DNA from: a virus
Virus genome (UHGV): UHGV-0335559
DNA: 23,334 nt
Direction: 5' to 3' (one strand)
Below, piece by piece: positions 6,132 through 21,912 of the stretch. The notes under the pieces were generated by a model. The model was not told the origin of the DNA, searched no databases, and saw only the letters and a program-made list of their open reading frames with translations. Numbering within the stretch: position 1 is the stretch's first letter; each line of letters opens with the position of its first letter. The position numbers and the translations under genes are program-made.

Positions 6132-6544
6132 GGTTCCCGCCCCTCAAAACGCTGACGACAGGCCGTGCGTATCAGCCGGAAGAACACCGACGCCACGAGG
6201 TAAATCAGCGCGGTAAAAATCCACCCGGCAGCGACCAGCGAGATAAACGTCGCCACCATCACCACCAGAGCCGCCGCCCGTCTGCGCCACGGCACCGGCT
6301 GCAAAAACAGCGACGCGACAATCTTCACGGCCAGCGATTCCGGCGGCAGCTCCCGCCCGTAGCGTTCCAGCACATACTCAGTGGCATACACGCCGACACC
6401 ACCGGCAACCACACAGATAACCGTCGCCAGAATCGCCCAGGCGGCGACAAAATTGACGGCCACGCTCTGCGGGTAAATCAGGGACAGTGCCAGCATCAGC
6501 GCCAGCGACACGTTCAGCATCAGTGAAAGGGATAATTTCTTCAT
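6119..6544 (-). CDS. lysA: LysA membrane protein (lysis timing/holin-associated)
   Basis: 141-aa ORF with several hydrophobic segments; sits between K and lysB as in P2. Confidence 0.75.
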   Translation of the reverse strand: MKKLSLSLMLNVSLALMLALSLIYPQSVAVNFVAAWAILATVICVVAGGVGVYATEYVLERYGRELPPESLAVKIVASLFLQPVPWRRRAAALVVMVATFISLVAAGWIFTALIYLVASVFFRLIRTACRQRFEGREPCQS

Positions 6545-6558
6545 GGTGTTTACTCCGT

Positions 6559-7056
6559 TTAAGCCGGTACGCCGCCAGCGGTACGCCAGACGGTGACCAG
6601 TTTTTCCAGTGAATGCTCACGCTGACCGTAACCGGCACCCGGCAGGGACGCCCAGATATTGCGACAGCGTGAAATGGCGCGCTCAATGCGTCCCGCCCGG
6701 ATGTCATCCAGTGCACCGCGTTCGCGGATCAACTGAATGGCGAGTCTGTCCTGTGACAACGGGCTGAAATCAGGCAGGGCAAGCTGTTTACGGTAGTGCG
6801 GCCAGAACAGGTAAAGCTGCTGATAGCGACCGGAGGCCGTGGATTTTTCACCGCGACGGTTAAACACCTTCGCCGGTCGGCCATGTGCGAACGGGTGGTC
6901 ACTGTAGTCGGTGAAAATTTCCGGCTTTCCGTCCAGTCCGGTGACTATCACGTCATAGCCCCGGTTTTTCGTCAGCGGATGATTCGCCGTCCCTTCGGAC
7001 ACGGCCAGCATGTCGAGAAAGGCGGCGATATTCTGATGCGTGTTAATTACCGGCAT
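6559..7056 (-). CDS. K: Endolysin (lysozyme-like, P2 gpK)
   Basis: 165-aa ORF MPVINTHQNIAAFLDMLAVSEGT...; phage lysozyme-like N-terminus. Its start overlaps the stop of the holin gene. Confidence 0.9.
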   Translation of the reverse strand: MPVINTHQNIAAFLDMLAVSEGTANHPLTKNRGYDVIVTGLDGKPEIFTDYSDHPFAHGRPAKVFNRRGEKSTASGRYQQLYLFWPHYRKQLALPDFSPLSQDRLAIQLIRERGALDDIRAGRIERAISRCRNIWASLPGAGYGQREHSLEKLVTVWRTAGGVPA

Positions 7057-13954: not shown

Positions 13955-14959
13955 ATGGGCGCGGAGATTAATATTTTGGAAACTGATTTTAAAATAACCC
14001 TCGAAGGTTTCGCTACTGAGCAAGAAGCAAATAATATCGGTAATTTCACACTAGAAGCTATCCGAGCTTTAACAAAAAATCTCAATCTTGATATCTCCAA
14101 ATTAAAATGCGTGATTGTTTCCTATAACTTCAGTGAAGCTCTTCAAAAGGTAACATCCTCTTACCAACACAAATCCCCTAGTTCATTTACCAATAGCAAA
14201 CAGGGCGCAGCCGTCGGGCAGTTAGTAACAAAAATTGGCAATGATGGGCTATGTGAAGAATATACCCTTGTGCTATCGATTGATTTTTTTGTTGAGCTTT
14301 TCAATGATGGTAGCTTCTTAAAACTGAAAGAAGAAGGATACCTCGCAGTCATCCATCGCATTCACCATGAATTAGTGCACGTACATGAAAAAAACTTACT
14401 AACATGCTTAGCCCAAAACTTTACAGTCAACGAGTATGGTAGCGCGCTTCTTATCTCAGCCACGCGTGCATGGTCTGAATATCTCGCTAATTACATGTCT
14501 TCGGGGTCTGCCCCTCAAGAAACTATCGATTTATTTTTAGAGAATCTTGACACTGTTGTAAATGAAGTATCTGACGAGATTGAAAAACTCATCTGGGGTT
14601 ATAAGTACGGTAATATTTCTCTGAATGACATGTATCTTGAAGTAAAAAAACGTATCAGGCTAATCATCAACTCTTATGCTTATGCGATGGGTTATGTCCA
14701 TTCTCTAAACATCAATATTAAAGAATACGATCCAAAGCTATCCCTTACACTATCCAACTCAAAGATAAGATATCAATTATCAGAATTAGGCATTGCTTTT
14801 CAGAATCTTTATGGGAAGTTTAATGACCAGCACATTACAGGTTTTGGTGATTTTCGGGAGATAACAATAATCATTGATGAAATATTCAAGCAGTTTGGGC
14901 TTGTTTTAGAGTGTCCCGATTGGTCTGGCGACGGTGAACTCTACATACATGTAAATTAG
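13955..14959 (+). CDS. Hypothetical cargo protein, 334 aa, HExxH motif (IHRIHHELVHVHEKN); no recognisable family
   Basis: Long uninterrupted ORF in an island of about one-third G+C (flanking phage genes are well above 50%). Sits between the portal gene and cos, where P2 as I recall it has only about 100 bp. No Walker A, no TM segment, no HTH that I can see. Confidence 0.6.
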   Translation: MGAEINILETDFKITLEGFATEQEANNIGNFTLEAIRALTKNLNLDISKLKCVIVSYNFSEALQKVTSSYQHKSPSSFTNSKQGAAVGQLVTKIGNDGLCEEYTLVLSIDFFVELFNDGSFLKLKEEGYLAVIHRIHHELVHVHEKNLLTCLAQNFTVNEYGSALLISATRAWSEYLANYMSSGSAPQETIDLFLENLDTVVNEVSDEIEKLIWGYKYGNISLNDMYLEVKKRIRLIINSYAYAMGYVHSLNINIKEYDPKLSLTLSNSKIRYQLSELGIAFQNLYGKFNDQHITGFGDFREITIIIDEIFKQFGLVLECPDWSGDGELYIHVN

Positions 14960-15523: not shown

Positions 15524-15808
15524 TTATTTGCGCATTCTGATGTGATTTAACAGGTGTTTGATAACGACTGATAGCTCATCTTTACCGGCCTGCTCGACCA
15601 TTTTTGCGGTGTAGCTTTCCACCTCGCGAGAGCTCAGGTCGTTATTTAAAGCCATTAAAGTCAGATTCTTTGCCCAATCGGCAAACGGGTCATTTTTCGA
15701 TGAAAGGGGATTTTGCATGTACAAAAACCTCGAATTATTTAACCAGCAGACGGTTGAAGTATTTGCGACGCTATGACCGGCTAACGCCTCGCGTAGCTCG
15801 TTGTTCAA
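15524..15808 (-). CDS. Hypothetical small protein (last gene of the SOS operon); start uncertain
   Basis: 94-aa ORF whose first codons lie inside repeat A. An internal Met at 15718 (MQNPLSSKND...) with GAGG upstream is the more likely start (64 aa). No recognisable family. Confidence 0.35.
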   Translation of the reverse strand: MNNELREALAGHSVANTSTVCWLNNSRFLYMQNPLSSKNDPFADWAKNLTLMALNNDLSSREVESYTAKMVEQAGKDELSVVIKHLLNHIRMRK

Positions 15809-15851: not shown

Positions 15852-16061
15852 CTATGGTCGACGTGGTGGCGGTGAGTAATGTGTCGGCTTGCTGATGCTA
15901 TCCAGCTTGCCGTAATTATCCCTGACTATTTCGGCACACCCGACCAGCTCGGCGGGTGTCAAATTCTCATTGACCATTATCTGCTGCAGACGATGAACGA
16001 TGGCCATCAGTTTGATGCTTTTAGTTTTGTGCTGCGGAATTTTGCCCGGTAGTCGATGCAT
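15852..16061 (-). CDS. Hypothetical 69-aa protein flanked by the two direct repeats
   Basis: ORF with GAGGG Shine-Dalgarno 7 nt upstream of the ATG at 16061. No recognisable family. Confidence 0.4.
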   Translation of the reverse strand: MHRLPGKIPQHKTKSIKLMAIVHRLQQIMVNENLTPAELVGCAEIVRDNYGKLDSISKPTHYSPPPRRP

Positions 16062-16189
16062 ATTATCGCCCTCAATGAATTTTATTTAGCGCTGCCACAG
16101 CGCCACTATAAAACCCGCTAAGGTAACGTCCCATTCATCACTGGTGTGTAACCAATAAAACATCGAGAAACTTTGAGAGGAAGAACTAG

Positions 16190-16254
16190 CGCCTCGCGGT
16201 GCGAGTTGTTCAACCCCGCCAGCACTGAAAGCAAGTTTCAGCACCGGCGGCGTT
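16190..16254. repeat. 65-bp direct repeat, copy B (contains hairpin CTGAAA-GCAAG-TTTCAG)
   Basis: Partner of 15785-15849; begins 2 nt after the stop of the DinI-like gene on the minus strand. Confidence 0.75.
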
Positions 16255-16256
16255 TG

Positions 16257-16490
16257 TTAATGCAGCCAGCTATCGTCCTCCCATACCTGCTGCATGATTT
16301 CCATTACTCGTTTTTTATCTTCGTCCAGTTTCAAACCGCTTAGTTCAACGCCATTAGCGGAGCCCTTGCGAATTCGGATAGCAGTCTTTGGGTAAATAGG
16401 TTGAAGATTGCGGTACAGTTCAGCCTCAAGTGCATCCAATGTTGCCTGACTAATTTTTTGCTCTTTATCCAACGTGATATTGATTCTCAT
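16257..16490 (-). CDS. DinI-like protein (DinI / 186 Tum C-terminal domain family)
   Basis: 77 aa, MRINITLDKEQKISQATLDALEAELYRNLQPIYP...VMEIMQQVWEDDSWLH; resembles E. coli DinI (MRIEVTIAK...ALAGELSRRIQ...) in pattern and length. Weak Shine-Dalgarno; the ATG is one codon after the in-frame stop of the upstream ORF. Confidence 0.75.
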   Translation of the reverse strand: MRINITLDKEQKISQATLDALEAELYRNLQPIYPKTAIRIRKGSANGVELSGLKLDEDKKRVMEIMQQVWEDDSWLH

Positions 16491-16493
16491 AAT

Positions 16494-16676
16494 CTAATCA
16501 GCCTTATAAAAATTATCATCTTCGGTTTCGTTATTTTCGCTGTTTGCTAGGTCTGCAATGAGAGTGAGCGCGAGCTTTAAGTCTGATGGCTTGCAGTTTG
16601 CAATCAGAGATACCTCGGCAATAAATTGCACACAAGCCCACTTTTGCTGCGTTCGGCTGAAATGTTCGCCAACCAT
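16494..16676 (-). CDS. Small protein, possible N-terminal (antirepressor) part of a Tum-like protein
   Basis: 60-aa ORF with strong Shine-Dalgarno (GGGAGGG) and a LexA box just upstream. Same reading frame as the DinI-like ORF, separated from it by a single TAG. Confidence 0.5.
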   Translation of the reverse strand: MVGEHFSRTQQKWACVQFIAEVSLIANCKPSDLKLALTLIADLANSENNETEDDNFYKAD

Positions 16677-16695
16677 GAAATCCCTCCCACAGGGT

Positions 16696-16715
16696 TACTG
16701 TATATTTATACAGTA
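16696..16715. promoter_or_regulatory. LexA box (SOS operator) overlapping the promoter of the tum/DinI-like operon
   Basis: TACTGTATATTTATACAGTA: CTGT (16698-16701), 8 nt, ACAG (16710-16713), one central mismatch to the consensus TACTGTATATATATACAGTA. Lies about 20 nt upstream of the start codon at 16676. Confidence 0.75.
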
Positions 16716-16789
16716 GCACGTATTGGCAAAAGATGGGAAGAAAAAAAACGAATAGAGCGATTGCTGTATGTGCATGATATGGATATGAA

Positions 16790-19012
16790 TTACCCATGTA
16801 TTGGTTTTGATGCTTCAGCCATCGCCGCAACACGATTAAGGATTTTCCGAGCTTTAGCCTCATGCGATGGTGCTGCGGAAAATATTTCTCCTTTGGCCGT
16901 TCCGCGTAGCCATTTACCATCAAAACAACTTTTACCACCGGCCATCAGGTGCAGGGCTTCGCCCCGGCTGATATTAATGCCGGTTGTCAGATGTATCTCA
17001 TCGATAGTTTTAGCTATAGCTGCGTTTTGCTCATCCGTTCCGTGGATGAATTTTCGCCGTGCTGCTGGCTTTTGCTTCCTGAGTCGGTTGGTCAATTCTC
17101 GTCTTTCACGCCGACTCAGTGGTTTTGTTAAATCCAGTATCGGTGGATCGCTTTCGCTTCCCGTACAGTTATTGACAGAACTCCGAGGGACGGCTTTGCC
17201 GTCCTGAAGGTCAACGGCCAAATCAACAGCACGCTTCGGAACAATCTTCCACTGAGTGAGCCGGGTTAAAATCGGGCTTCCTGCACCTATGGAGGAATCG
17301 TAGACCCCCTTAATACATACCGTTTCCTCACCGTACTGATTAAGCTCGGTGCGCGGTTCATACAGTGTGCGCACCTGTAAATCATCGCGACGGACAAACG
17401 GCCCACCCTGAGCATTAACATAACCAGCCCAGTCACCAGCGTCGGCGGCATCATGGACGGCGGCAAACTCAACGCTCAGACCGTGCGCGGTTTCGGTATC
17501 AGCGAGGCGACGCAACTCACGGTAAACCGTCACCGGCGCACCACCAATAAACTGAAACTGACGGATGTGCCAGCGCGCAGCCCATGCTGAAACGGCGGGG
17601 GCTGTCTCTTTCAGCAGCTCACCGCTTTCATCATCGGTTTCACCATCGAGAGCATAACCGTCGATATTTTTTGAAATGTATTTAGCAACATAGCCGGTTG
17701 CGCTGCCTTTCTCCGGGTCAATGGACTCGGCGTGGAAACGTGCTTTTTTGGATTTATCGCTTTTCAGTTCGTGGCGGTCTTCTTTCCATGCGTATTTACG
17801 GACGATGGAGCGAACATATTCAACATCTTCCGGCAGCATGAACATCAGCATGTGCCAGTGTGGAGTGCCGTCGTGATGGGGCTCGGCGACACGAATACCG
17901 AAAATACGGACATCTTCCCGATGTAGTTTGGCACGGATACGCGCCCAGATACCGGTTAGATAGTTTTGCGTGTCAGCCGGGCTGGCACCGCTCCATTTGC
18001 TGTTACGGTAACCGGCTTTAGTCGTGGCGTGATATTTTGACGGCGCGGTTAGAGTGTAAAACTCACCGACATAACCGAGCTCATTACAGATGTTTTCAAA
18101 CCCACGAATGCGGGTCATGAGCTCACAGCGGCGAATCGCAGGGTTAGCAACTGAGCCATCATATTTTTCAATTAGGCTGATACGGTTGCCGTCTTCGTCT
18201 TCGAGATCCAGACCTTTGAGAAATTCACGAGTGCGGCGCTTTTGTTCACGCCAGTCAGTCACGCAGTTTTTACTCGCGTAAGTGTTTTTTTTCTTACTGA
18301 CGTTGCCGACTGCAATTTGCAGGTGTTCGCGCCACGTAGCTGCAACACGGCGCAAACGACCGCGCCACCACCCATCGTTAAACATTTTGGCGATAGCCGG
18401 TGCGATTTCATCCGCACCGACATATTTTTTTTCAACCCGCTCCCAATGTGGTGGGATAACGTTGAATTGGAGGGAAATAAAGCCAGCACGAATATACCAG
18501 GTGTACAGCGTTTTAAGCTCGCCGAATCCGTGGTCATTAATGTTGGCAAGTTCACCACGAATGAAATTAGCAATATCAGCGGCCAACAGGTCAACATCAG
18601 CGCGCGACATGTCCGGGAGACGGTTATATTGGGCGACCATATTAACCATGCGTGACGACAGATATTGCATTTGCTGAGTATCAAAATGACTTCCAAAAAC
18701 AGCGGTTGATACCTTGCTGTTGATACCAGCGCATTCGTATTTTTTTGCGACCAGTTCAAGACGCGGCAATGCCTTTTTGCAGAAGCTGATTAAAAATGCA
18801 TTGGCTCGTTGACTACCCTGATTTTGCTCCAGCACCGCAGCAGTGCGATAAACATCTAACCGCACGCAGTCGGGCTGGAGAGAAAGCACCTTTTTTGCAT
18901 GCAGCAAAGCCGCGAACATACGGTCGCGGCGATGCTGTTGCTCATAAGTAAGGTATGGGCTGGAGATTGCCGACCGTGGGACGTTCCACGGATAAGCGAA
19001 TTGAACAGCCAA
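16790..19012 (-). CDS. A: Replication initiation endonuclease gpA (rolling-circle initiator)
   Basis: 740-aa ORF with HUH-type motif (EPHHDGTPHWHMLMF) and a tyrosine region (GYVAKYISKNIDGYALDG), as in the P2 A protein family. Confidence 0.9.
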   Translation of the reverse strand: MAVQFAYPWNVPRSAISSPYLTYEQQHRRDRMFAALLHAKKVLSLQPDCVRLDVYRTAAVLEQNQGSQRANAFLISFCKKALPRLELVAKKYECAGINSKVSTAVFGSHFDTQQMQYLSSRMVNMVAQYNRLPDMSRADVDLLAADIANFIRGELANINDHGFGELKTLYTWYIRAGFISLQFNVIPPHWERVEKKYVGADEIAPAIAKMFNDGWWRGRLRRVAATWREHLQIAVGNVSKKKNTYASKNCVTDWREQKRRTREFLKGLDLEDEDGNRISLIEKYDGSVANPAIRRCELMTRIRGFENICNELGYVGEFYTLTAPSKYHATTKAGYRNSKWSGASPADTQNYLTGIWARIRAKLHREDVRIFGIRVAEPHHDGTPHWHMLMFMLPEDVEYVRSIVRKYAWKEDRHELKSDKSKKARFHAESIDPEKGSATGYVAKYISKNIDGYALDGETDDESGELLKETAPAVSAWAARWHIRQFQFIGGAPVTVYRELRRLADTETAHGLSVEFAAVHDAADAGDWAGYVNAQGGPFVRRDDLQVRTLYEPRTELNQYGEETVCIKGVYDSSIGAGSPILTRLTQWKIVPKRAVDLAVDLQDGKAVPRSSVNNCTGSESDPPILDLTKPLSRRERRELTNRLRKQKPAARRKFIHGTDEQNAAIAKTIDEIHLTTGINISRGEALHLMAGGKSCFDGKWLRGTAKGEIFSAAPSHEAKARKILNRVAAMAEASKPIHG

Positions 19013-21066: not shown

Positions 21067-21912
21067 ATGTCTAAAAATGATGTTAATGCGTCTGCCGCAT
21101 TGGAACGTGTCCTTTCTGCATACGGCTTTAAGCAGCAAAAGGAACTAGCCGAAAGGCTTGGCATACATGCAAACAACGTGAGTAGCTGGCTTGCTAGAAA
21201 CGTAATCCCTAGCAACGTTTTCGTTGAGTGTGCTCTTGATACTGGAGCTGACCTGCGATGGCTAATTAATGGTGAGCTTGCAAATGCAAGATTTGAAGTG
21301 GTGAAAACTAAGCTTAAAGGTAAGCAACTCTATGATGAAATCATGGCAAATGGAGGGAGGGCGGTTCTGCGTCGGATTCTCGATGCGTATGGTTTTACTC
21401 TGCAAAAAGAGCTTGGAGATTTATTAGGTATATCTTCCGGCACTATAAGCACTTGGGTTAGACGCGATTTTTTCCCCGGTGACGTGGTTGTCACTTGCGC
21501 CCTTGATACTGGCGTATCGTTAGAATGGTTATCAACCGGAAAAGGCCAGATGCGTAACAGTAATGATGGTGAACCGGCAAATGCTTTAACGATTAGAAAG
21601 TGCCGCCTCGAGGCTGGCGAACTCAAAGATATCGGACGCTGGACTCCTGATATATCTATGGTTCCATCAAATACTGATGATTTAGTGTTTATTGATGGTG
21701 TGAGCACATCTTGGCTTGTTGATAGTTCTAACTCGAAGATAGGAAATGGTCGCTGGCTTATTGGTATTGATGGCGCACTCGATGTTTTTGACGTAATCAG
21801 GTTGCCAGGCGGAAAGGTAAGGTTATCAAATAAGTCTGCTGAGTTTGAATGTAATATTTCAGATATCACACCATCAGGTGCGGTTATTTTTACTTTGGAA
21901 AAGCATGTTTAA
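21067..21912 (+). CDS. cI: CI-type immunity repressor with tandemly duplicated N-terminal HTH domain
   Basis: Start set at MSKNDVNASAALERVLSAYGF... (281 aa). Two homologous ~85-aa repeats (...AYGFKQQKELAERLGI...CALDTGADLRWLINGE / ...AYGFTLQKELGDLLGI...CALDTGVSLEWLSTGK), then a C-terminal domain (...RLPGGKVRLSNKSAEFECNISDI...) resembling the 186 CI C-terminal domain as I recall it. Confidence 0.75.
   Translation: MSKNDVNASAALERVLSAYGFKQQKELAERLGIHANNVSSWLARNVIPSNVFVECALDTGADLRWLINGELANARFEVVKTKLKGKQLYDEIMANGGRAVLRRILDAYGFTLQKELGDLLGISSGTISTWVRRDFFPGDVVVTCALDTGVSLEWLSTGKGQMRNSNDGEPANALTIRKCRLEAGELKDIGRWTPDISMVPSNTDDLVFIDGVSTSWLVDSSNSKIGNGRWLIGIDGALDVFDVIRLPGGKVRLSNKSAEFECNISDITPSGAVIFTLEKHV

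Follow-up and report, generated by a model that had tools for sequence, protein, structure and literature searches.

The UHGV virus genome UHGV-0335559, whose whole 23,334-nucleotide stretch analyzed here is called the window, carries on its minus strand, between positions 16257 and 16676, two short open reading frames (ORFs) that share one frame and are separated by a TAG stop codon and a single further codon. We consider it very probable (roughly 85%) that this locus is a two-gene SOS operon of a 186/PSP3-like (Eganvirus-type) E. coli prophage of the P2 family, in which tumA encodes the antirepressor TumA and tumB encodes TumB, a DinI-like protein produced by translational reinitiation. The feature is already known: it corresponds to the tumA/tumB operon that is standard in PSP3-type prophages. 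GenBank has carried an annotation of the pair since 2002, and publications of 2002 and 2011 discuss it; the finding as first posed, a Tum-like reading frame split from its DinI-like domain by an amber codon, matters little. The survey reported below sharpens the picture, with the antirepressor and DinI modules behaving as separable units. Annotation pipelines could also be corrected, because TumA is labeled "hypothetical" or "unknown function" and its start is often miscalled.

In the mechanism that we propose, LexA would repress a p95-like promoter whose -10 hexamer lies inside a perfect LexA box. DNA damage would lead to LexA cleavage and to transcription of tumA and tumB up to a hairpin located just past tumB. 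The strong Shine-Dalgarno (SD) sequence of tumA would direct synthesis of a two-helix protein of 60 residues, which, by homology to phage 186 Tum and in line with a result reported for PSP3, would bind the prophage repressor CI and keep it off its operators, leading to prophage induction. Ribosomes would stop at the TAG and most likely reinitiate at the tumB ATG, since that codon follows after only 3 nt and lacks a usable SD. The resulting separate 77-residue TumB, which is the counterpart of Tum95.5, an internally initiated product of 186, would act as a modulator of RecA and of the SOS response.

The tumA-tumB junction and its two predicted products

Reading and translation of the sequence bore out the in-frame TAG that the first-pass annotation had described. 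On the minus strand, the 60-aa ORF (16676-16494) begins with the ATG at 16676-16674 and ends with the TAG at 16496-16494; the 77-aa ORF (16490-16257) begins with the ATG at 16490-16488 and ends with a TAA at 16259-16257. The junction reads ...TAT AAG GCT GAT TAG ATT ATG AGA ATC..., with GAT at 16499-16497 and ATT at 16493-16491. The shared frame carries little weight by itself, since it is expected by chance for one-third of neighboring ORFs; it is the conservation of the junction, rather than the frame, that goes beyond chance. The 3-nt gap between stop and start corresponds to the close spacing of a translationally coupled pair. As in such pairs, the downstream gene has no effective SD of its own. 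Its pairing with the anti-SD sequence (-3.8 kcal/mol) falls at the 25th percentile of random 20-mers drawn from the window, versus -10.7 kcal/mol for tumA, in agreement with the weak ribosome-binding site already noticed for the DinI-like ORF. Grouped by architecture, the anti-SD energies were -3.8 kcal/mol for junctions with ATG 3 nt after the stop, -6.9 for the Salmonella prophage Fels-2, -9.1 for one locus with a 17-nt gap (L034), and -12.1 for 186 Tum95.5. The lack of an SD in front of tumB is thus what termination-reinitiation coupling would predict.

TumA is 98% identical to the TumA protein of PSP3, and its ORF did not match any Pfam family. The description in the first-pass annotation of 186 Tum as a 146-aa protein with a DinI-like C-terminal half was right, and the relationship that it had suspected between the 60-aa peptide and the Tum N terminus was confirmed. 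The Smith-Waterman score of TumA against 186 Tum was 60, whereas shuffled sequences scored 21.8 ± 4.0 and none of 5,000 reached 60; residues 15 to 56 of TumA align with residues 13 to 52 of 186 Tum through a common C..D..LALxLIAxxA motif. The profile phrog_1993 matches both TumA (E = 1e-31) and residues 1 to 70 of 186 Tum (E = 1.5e-23). TumA is thus homologous to the non-DinI half of 186 Tum. BLASTP returned no alignment between the two proteins because their N-terminal modules are too diverged; in view of the shuffling test and the PHROG profiles, this outcome was set aside as a heuristic false negative.

A search of 5.8 billion proteins recovered 208 TumA clusters, and 102 of the 120 listed are 60 to 61 aa long. 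The homologs span approximately 15 enterobacterial genera, including Escherichia, Salmonella, Klebsiella, Citrobacter, Cronobacter, Enterobacter, Yokenella, Kluyvera, Pluralibacter, Atlantibacter, Kosakonia, and Buttiauxella, among others. Among the matches listed, the homologs share one end position (...Y-K/E-A/V-E/D), and the longer entries are start codon miscalls that run through the LexA box. In the homolog alignment, residues 10 to 47 are near-invariant and the acidic tail is variable. The ratio of nonsynonymous to synonymous substitution rates (dN/dS) relative to the window was 0.06 to 0.13 for tumA and 0.007 to 0.04 for its core, with dS values ranging from 0.6 to saturation. tumA is therefore under strong purifying selection. 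AlphaFold2 modeled TumA as a helical hairpin followed by the acidic tail, with a predicted local distance difference test score of ~70.

The database treatment of TumA deserves mention on its own. The protein is often miscalled with an N-terminal extension of 14 to 33 aa from an upstream in-frame start (P0001, P0002, P0010, P0018, P0027, P0028, P0077, and others), the extension being a translation of the promoter and the LexA box as "LLYKYTV" (positions 16676-16740 of the window). The same error affects 186-type Tum, in which the LexA box is translated as "ILYVYTV." The NCBI pipeline PGAP names TumA a "hypothetical protein" (RefSeq WP_000232651.1 and relatives), although it is annotated in PSP3 and has been stated in print to carry the antirepressor activity. 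In PHROGs, the DinI family phrog_189 has also absorbed the 186 Tum N-terminal half.

Assignment of TumB to the DinI family is based on a match to Pfam PF06183 above the curated threshold (E = 7.4e-24; 84.3 bits for a cutoff of 24.2; residues 15 to 76), a match to phrog_189 (E = 3e-30), and a full-length alignment with the structurally characterized E. coli DinI, in which TumB residues 1 to 75 pair with residues 1 to 77 of the PDB 1GHH chain (E = 2.6e-9), the acidic C-terminal helix included. E. coli DinI binds RecA filaments and modulates the SOS response. TumB is also 47% identical to residues 71 to 145 of 186 Tum (E = 5e-28), and in the DNA alignment its ATG coincides exactly with the GTG start of Tum95.5.

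A mosaic breakpoint lies approximately 40 nt into tumB (positions 16450-16490 of the window; loci L002, L006, L007, and L011). In E. coli genomes and in phage 613R3, the same tumA and junction are joined to another, more 186-like tumB, and many E. coli prophages belong to this class, matching only over positions 1 to 351 of the query. Since the breakpoint joins one tumA to different tumB genes, the DinI module has been swapped by recombination independently of tumA.

Architectures across related prophages

The 32 loci at which junctions were compared came from the window itself, from records of phages, from E. coli genomes, and from 25 genome contigs. The position of the tumA stop was constant at all 32 loci, with TAG used at 22, TAA at 7, and TGA at 3. 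A LexA box (CTGT-N8-ACAG) was present 35 to 41 nt upstream of the tumA ATG at 31 loci. The sole exception is L008 (E. coli LR-21-1, positions 192-1700), where an ISKox3 transposase gene lies between gene A and tumA. Downstream of tumA, this locus reads TAG GTT ATG TAA, in which a remnant of the tumB start persists before unrelated DNA begins, and its prophage has probably lost SOS inducibility.

A dinI gene followed tumA at 12 of the 32 loci and was missing from the other 20, where a terminator or unrelated genes (e.g., gpX or cytosine methyltransferase genes) come next after tumA. Ten of the 12 two-gene loci have the in-frame arrangement of stop, 3 nt, and ATG, in one case with TAA (L022, from a diverged Atlantibacter). 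At the other two, dinI is out of frame, with gaps of 2 nt (L030) and 17 nt (L034). An apparent ORF 3 nt after the tumA stop of L014 was rejected as not being a real gene. In L032 (Escherichia sp. ESNIH1), a 129-aa ORF (6190-6579) begins 9 nt after tumA and contains, by eye, a UmuD-like "GFPSPAQDY" segment; this likeness had no Pfam support and is unconfirmed. If truly UmuD-like, the ORF would represent another SOS-related partner replacing DinI. Two contigs labeled as nonenterobacterial, L015 (a metagenome-assembled genome labeled Bacillota) and L018 (labeled Chryseobacterium sp. 18061), carry enterobacterial P2-like tumA loci encoding TumA proteins 84 to 90% identical to that of the window and are probably misbinned or contaminant.

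Among IMG/VR viral contigs searched with the stop position left free, TAG was present in 61 of 61 genuine junctions. A single match with a sense codon (TCA, L065) was discarded, since it arose by chance within a 652-codon ORF belonging to an AT-rich phage that is unrelated. The TumA homologs recovered from the 5.8 billion proteins included no fused PSP3-type protein, and none was detected with a TumA profile in 1.84 billion representatives, which gave 36 matches, essentially all of 46 to 87 aa. Two longer matches of the profile, P0144 (109 aa) and P0149 (137 aa), have C-terminal extensions that are not DinI-like. A junction-spanning query (TumA C terminus, Q, I, and TumB N terminus) gave no match covering both halves, the maximal coverage being 53%. 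Long matches of TumB (P0277, P0282, and P0286) were likewise dismissed as N-terminal fusions, since they are C-terminal frameshift variants.

The 186-type N-terminal subfamily includes both standalone forms of 63 to 78 aa, some of them named "Tum protein," and in-frame fused forms. The top 120 matches of a search with the 186-type N terminus contained truncated fused and standalone entries only, with no full-length 146-aa entry. Ratios of fused to split forms were consequently drawn not from these matches but from a search of complete E. coli genomes. A fused 186-type gene was present in 42 of 5,426 such genomes, always annotated as one coding sequence for a "DinI family protein." Of the 5,426 genomes, 111 were matched at least in part by a 651-nt probe spanning the PSP3-type locus; 37 of these matches were full length, and part of the 111 were short matches to the terminator end only.

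Antirepressor and DinI modules are therefore found in four states: fused (186), abutting and in frame (PSP3 and the window), adjacent and out of frame with a separate SD for the second gene (Fels-2), and antirepressor alone (most lineages). The fused textbook Tum is not the commonest of these; two-gene or antirepressor-only forms are the common state.

The presumed target of TumA, the CI repressor of the window, contains two tandem Phage_CI_repr helix-turn-helix (HTH) domains and a CI C-terminal domain. PSP3 CI (286 aa) is of the same large type, which accompanies TumA at approximately 18 of the 20 loci for which the region was covered, whereas 186 and Fels-2, with diverged N-terminal modules, have single-HTH CIs that are about 30% identical to that of the window. 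The CIs of 14 TumA-bearing prophages are 46 to 79% identical overall. Their mean pairwise identity was 0.87 in the second HTH domain (HTH2, residues 99 to 163), 0.61 in the first, and 0.58 in the C-terminal domain; it peaked at 0.95 around residues 136 to 150, compared to 0.93 for the TumA core. In L017, the second HTH domain of CI is retained and the first is absent. This pattern of conservation suggests that HTH2 is a candidate docking surface for TumA, although part of the co-conservation could come from shared ancestry alone. It also offers a testable handle on the recognition of repressors by such antirepressors. A tentative extension, to which we give rather less than even odds, is that TumA is a broad-specificity antirepressor docking on the conserved HTH2; the fused 186 Tum would then be derived, its linker being a translated former ribosome-binding site. 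If this is true, one SOS-induced prophage could cross-induce heteroimmune relatives.

Alternative readings

Three interpretations had been offered in the first-pass annotation, namely, a nonsense-split tum, a two-protein variant using restart at the adjacent ATG, and stop codon readthrough in a suppressor host. The PSP3 tumA/tumB layout, the conservation of the pair, purifying selection, and the weak SD all favor the two-protein variant. A once-fused gene broken by a nonsense mutation, of which a decaying N-terminal piece and a remnant of DinI would be left, is scarcely credible. Phage 186 does have a single 146-aa gene at the homologous place, and fused 186-type genes do occur in the 42 E. 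coli genomes, but both the length and the sequence of the 60-aa product are maintained in ~15 genera, where its stop keeps the same position and is specified by all three stop codons. Furthermore, dN/dS is well below 1 at saturating dS, and tumA, which retains its own strong SD and LexA box, frequently stands alone and is found in plaque-forming, UV-inducible phages such as PSP3. Prophages of the PSP3 type uniformly encode two separate genes, an outcome that the first-pass annotation had itself named as counting against its proposal. Readthrough of the TAG, whether programmed or suppressor dependent, would produce a 139-aa TumA-X-I-TumB fusion equivalent to 186 Tum, the in-frame spacing of one codon being kept for that outcome. 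We regard this, and equally the retention of the in-frame TAG for low-level readthrough into a regulatory TumA-TumB fusion, as very improbable. In its favor, a single codon beyond the stop separates the in-frame ORFs, a fusion of similar layout is produced by 186, and both TAG and frame are invariant in the PSP3-type lineage (10 of 10 surveyed loci and the 61 IMG/VR junctions); this invariance, however, is observed within a closely related lineage and represents too few mutational events to carry weight. The same 3-nt spacing occurs with TAA in L022, TAA and TGA are used at 7 and 3 loci across the family, dinI is out of frame in L030, L034, and Fels-2, and 20 of the 32 loci have no dinI. Neither the profile nor the junction-spanning query revealed a fused PSP3-type protein, fused orthologs being restricted to the diverged 186-type subfamily. 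No tRNA gene, and hence no suppressor tRNA, and no Rfam family was found in the window, and the junction RNA was devoid of significant structure (fold z = -0.87, with 36 of 200 shuffles as stable). Thus, the locus displays neither a conserved leaky stop and frame nor a stimulatory structure, as would be expected of a recoding site. Wild-type E. coli reads through UAG less than through the other stop codons, and supE is an allele of laboratory strains. Judged from these comparisons, a recent nonsense lesion is excluded, readthrough as a conserved mechanism is without support, and the locus consists of two genes, of which the second is optional.

Two further alternatives concern the translation of tumB and the role of TumA. 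Translation of tumB might be initiated de novo, from a weak AAGG element located 12 nt upstream and an A/U-rich start, or might barely occur, instead of depending on reinitiation. An A/U-rich, unstructured junction can favor SD-independent initiation, and tumB modules do recombine independently of tumA. Nevertheless, we consider this alternative unlikely, since the pairing with the anti-SD sequence is at background level, 12 nt is a poor spacing, and the AAGGCTGA segment is also kept at tumA-only loci, where it just encodes K-A-E/D. In addition, the longer-gap and fused lineages all have a real SD (-6.9 to -12.1 kcal/mol), as expected if a tight junction replaces the SD. It has also to be considered that TumA may have another SOS-linked role, e.g., acting on a host target rather than as a CI antirepressor. 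This would explain why its core, ~93% identical across loci, is more conserved than the CIs of the same loci (46 to 79%), and databases indeed list the family as being of unknown function. Such a role is nonetheless quite improbable for a homolog of the N-terminal half of 186 Tum, the sole non-DinI part of a proven CI antirepressor. TumA also co-occurs strictly with 186-type CI switches, HTH2 of CI (0.87) offers a conserved docking surface, and antirepressor activity is reported for PSP3 TumA in PMC3121763.

Several points weigh against the operon of an antirepressor and a reinitiated DinI-like protein that we favor. The hairpin after tumB has no long U-tract, and termination may be partial. 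CIs only 46 to 79% identical, set beside a TumA core at ~93%, fall short of demonstrating strict cognate pairing of TumA and CI. PHROGs describes phrog_1993 as "unknown function." The case for coupling consists of the spacing and the weak SD only. Finally, the source for the antirepressor activity of PSP3 TumA is a personal communication from Christie in Bunny et al. (2002), cited second-hand in PMC3121763.

Regulatory elements, genome setting, and known systems

The promoter and the hairpin were placed by homology to annotated 186 elements and by folding (Table 1). The -35 and -10 hexamers of the p95-like promoter are separated by an 18-nt spacer, as in 186 p95, and the predicted SOS box overlaps the -10 hexamer, the sequence organization of the LexA-repressed promoters of the Tum/TumA family. 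The hairpin (16254-16212) has a folding energy of -29.9 kcal/mol (z = -4.5), and none of 200 shuffles was as stable. Scans of positions 16100 to 16850 with strict sigma-70 and terminator consensus sequences called no promoter or terminator; the terminator scan missed the tumB hairpin because it lacks a long U-tract.

Table 1. Positions of the elements of the tumA-tumB operon and of cI in the window
Feature	Position	Strand	Description and basis
-35 hexamer TTCCCA of the p95-like SOS promoter	16734..16739	-	Positional homology with the 186 p95 -35 hexamer TTCACA
-10 hexamer TACTGT of the p95-like promoter	16710..16715	-	Within the LexA box; identical to the 186 p95 -10 hexamer
LexA box TACTGTATAAATATACAGTA	16696..16715	-	Perfect CTGT-N8-ACAG; aligns with the annotated 186 LexA site
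tumA SD, GGAGG	16683..16687	-	6 nt before the ATG; anti-SD duplex of -10.7 kcal/mol
tumA	16494..16676	-	Predicted antirepressor of 60 aa, ending with TAG 16496-16494; homologous to PSP3 TumA and to the N-terminal half of 186 Tum
Spacer codon ATT	16491..16493	-	Single codon between tumA stop and tumB start; 3-nt spacing kept in 10 of 12 two-gene loci
tumB	16257..16490	-	DinI family protein of 77 aa, no effective SD of its own; Pfam DinI, PDB 1GHH
Hairpin	16212..16254	-	Directly 3' of tumB, where 186 has its partial terminator t95a; RNA folding
cI	21067..21912	+	186/PSP3-type immunity repressor, presumed TumA target; PF07022 twice and PF16452

The window is a P2 family prophage in an E. coli chromosome, with a 100% match to strain 1008S13. 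Its late genes are P2-like and its early region is 186/PSP3-like. The order of genes on the minus strand is an ORF at the Apl position, CII (PF06892), a B-like gene, an Orf80-like gene, a gene for a TraR-type zinc finger protein, A, tumA, and tumB, so that tumA and tumB lie downstream of replication gene A (16790-19012). The plus strand carries genes for the CI repressor, a DUF2511 protein, and the integrase. CII (PF06892) and CI (PF07022 and PF16452) make up a 186-type switch with the gene order of PSP3 and 613R3; tumA occupies the site typical of the Tum/TumA family, past gene A of a prophage that has a 186-type CI/Apl/CII switch. By BLASTN against phage records, the same 650 bp were found at 94 to 96% identity in phages SEN1, PSP3, SI22, and SW9 of Salmonella, RCIP0057 of Klebsiella, and Midge of Escherichia.

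Two small ORFs located 3' of the tumB hairpin on the minus strand (15852-16061 and 15524-15808) are conserved in phages and belong to phrog_11386 (homologs of PSP3 gp37) and phrog_2454, respectively; neither family has an assigned function. Should the hairpin be a partial terminator like 186 t95a, their products may arise by read-through of the SOS transcript. On the plus strand, a 334-aa ORF (13955-14959) adjoins the portal gene, in a P2 cargo hotspot, and is also "hypothetical" in phage 613R3; it had no match in Pfam or PADLOC. PADLOC likewise gave no match for TumA or its neighbors.

Of the known systems, PSP3 (AY135486, NC_005340) is indistinguishable from the window with respect to the feature itself. 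Its junction, GCT GAT TAG ATT ATG AGA, is identical base for base, and it has a 60-aa TumA, a 77-aa TumB ~99% identical to that of the window, the same LexA box, the same position after gene A, and a large double-HTH CI. The differences are a DNA divergence of ~5% at the locus (95% identity) and the P2-like late genes of the window. The PSP3 record describes tumA as "similar to 5' end 186 tum; UV induction of prophage" and tumB as "similar to dinI and 3' end of 186 tum." Lemire et al. (PLoS Genet 2011, PMC3121763) state that the 146-aa 186 protein looks like an antirepressor fused to DinI; they describe the tumA/tumB arrangement and, citing Bunny et al. (2002), assign antirepressor activity to the upstream gene. 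The same article cites Shearwin et al. (1998) for the binding of 186 Tum to CI, the reversible block of operator binding, and the need for Tum in UV/SOS induction. According to Lavigne et al. (2009, PMC2771037), 186, PSP3, Fels-2, and SopEphi are UV inducible because of tum.

Phage 186 resembles the window in having a LexA-controlled p95-type promoter after gene A, homologous N-terminal and DinI modules, and a separate DinI-only product. Its record (U32222) lists p95 (-35 TTCACA, -10 TACTGT) with a LexA site over the -10 hexamer, the 146-aa tum, the partial terminator t95a, and three in-frame internal starts in tum (Tum95.2, Tum95.4, and Tum95.5), the last of which, a GTG, gives a 76-aa DinI-only product annotated as "modulates SOS induction." Unlike in the window, the modules are fused via 36 extra nt (12 codons) in place of GAT TAG ATT, and the linker holds a strong SD, AAGGAGG, serving Tum95.5, so that the DinI-only product comes from internal GTG initiation and not from a separate gene. 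In 186, moreover, CI has one HTH domain and 192 aa, and orf97 comes next, which is not the case in the window. The linker (L004, 3257-3295; ...PPVGETFAKEGK) resembles a translated former intergenic ribosome-binding site, and this resemblance suggests that the fused 186 tum arose from two genes.

The Fels-2 pair STM2728 and STM2726.1 is, like that of the window, a small ORF (62 aa) with a DinI gene downstream, the pair being located past gene A and preceded by LexA boxes. The 62-aa product belongs to the same superfamily, with a weak match to phrog_1993 and a strong match to phrog_698. The junction differs, reading AAT TGA GGTGACTTTT ATG, with a TGA stop and a 10-nt spacer that contains an SD of its own (GAGGTG), and CI has a single HTH domain. 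Since the Fels-2 genes are out of frame and the spacer has its own SD, this pair is not simply "split by a stop codon." A more distant parallel is provided by the dinI-gfoA/gftA operons of Gifsy-1/2/3, which, in the description given in PMC3121763, are LexA controlled and combine a DinI homolog with a small antirepressor of a noncleavable repressor; there, however, dinI comes first, neither the antirepressors nor the repressors are related in sequence to those of the window, and the prophages are lambdoid. E. coli DinI itself (1GHH) resembles TumB over its full length, the latter differing in being phage borne, second in an operon, and without its own SD.

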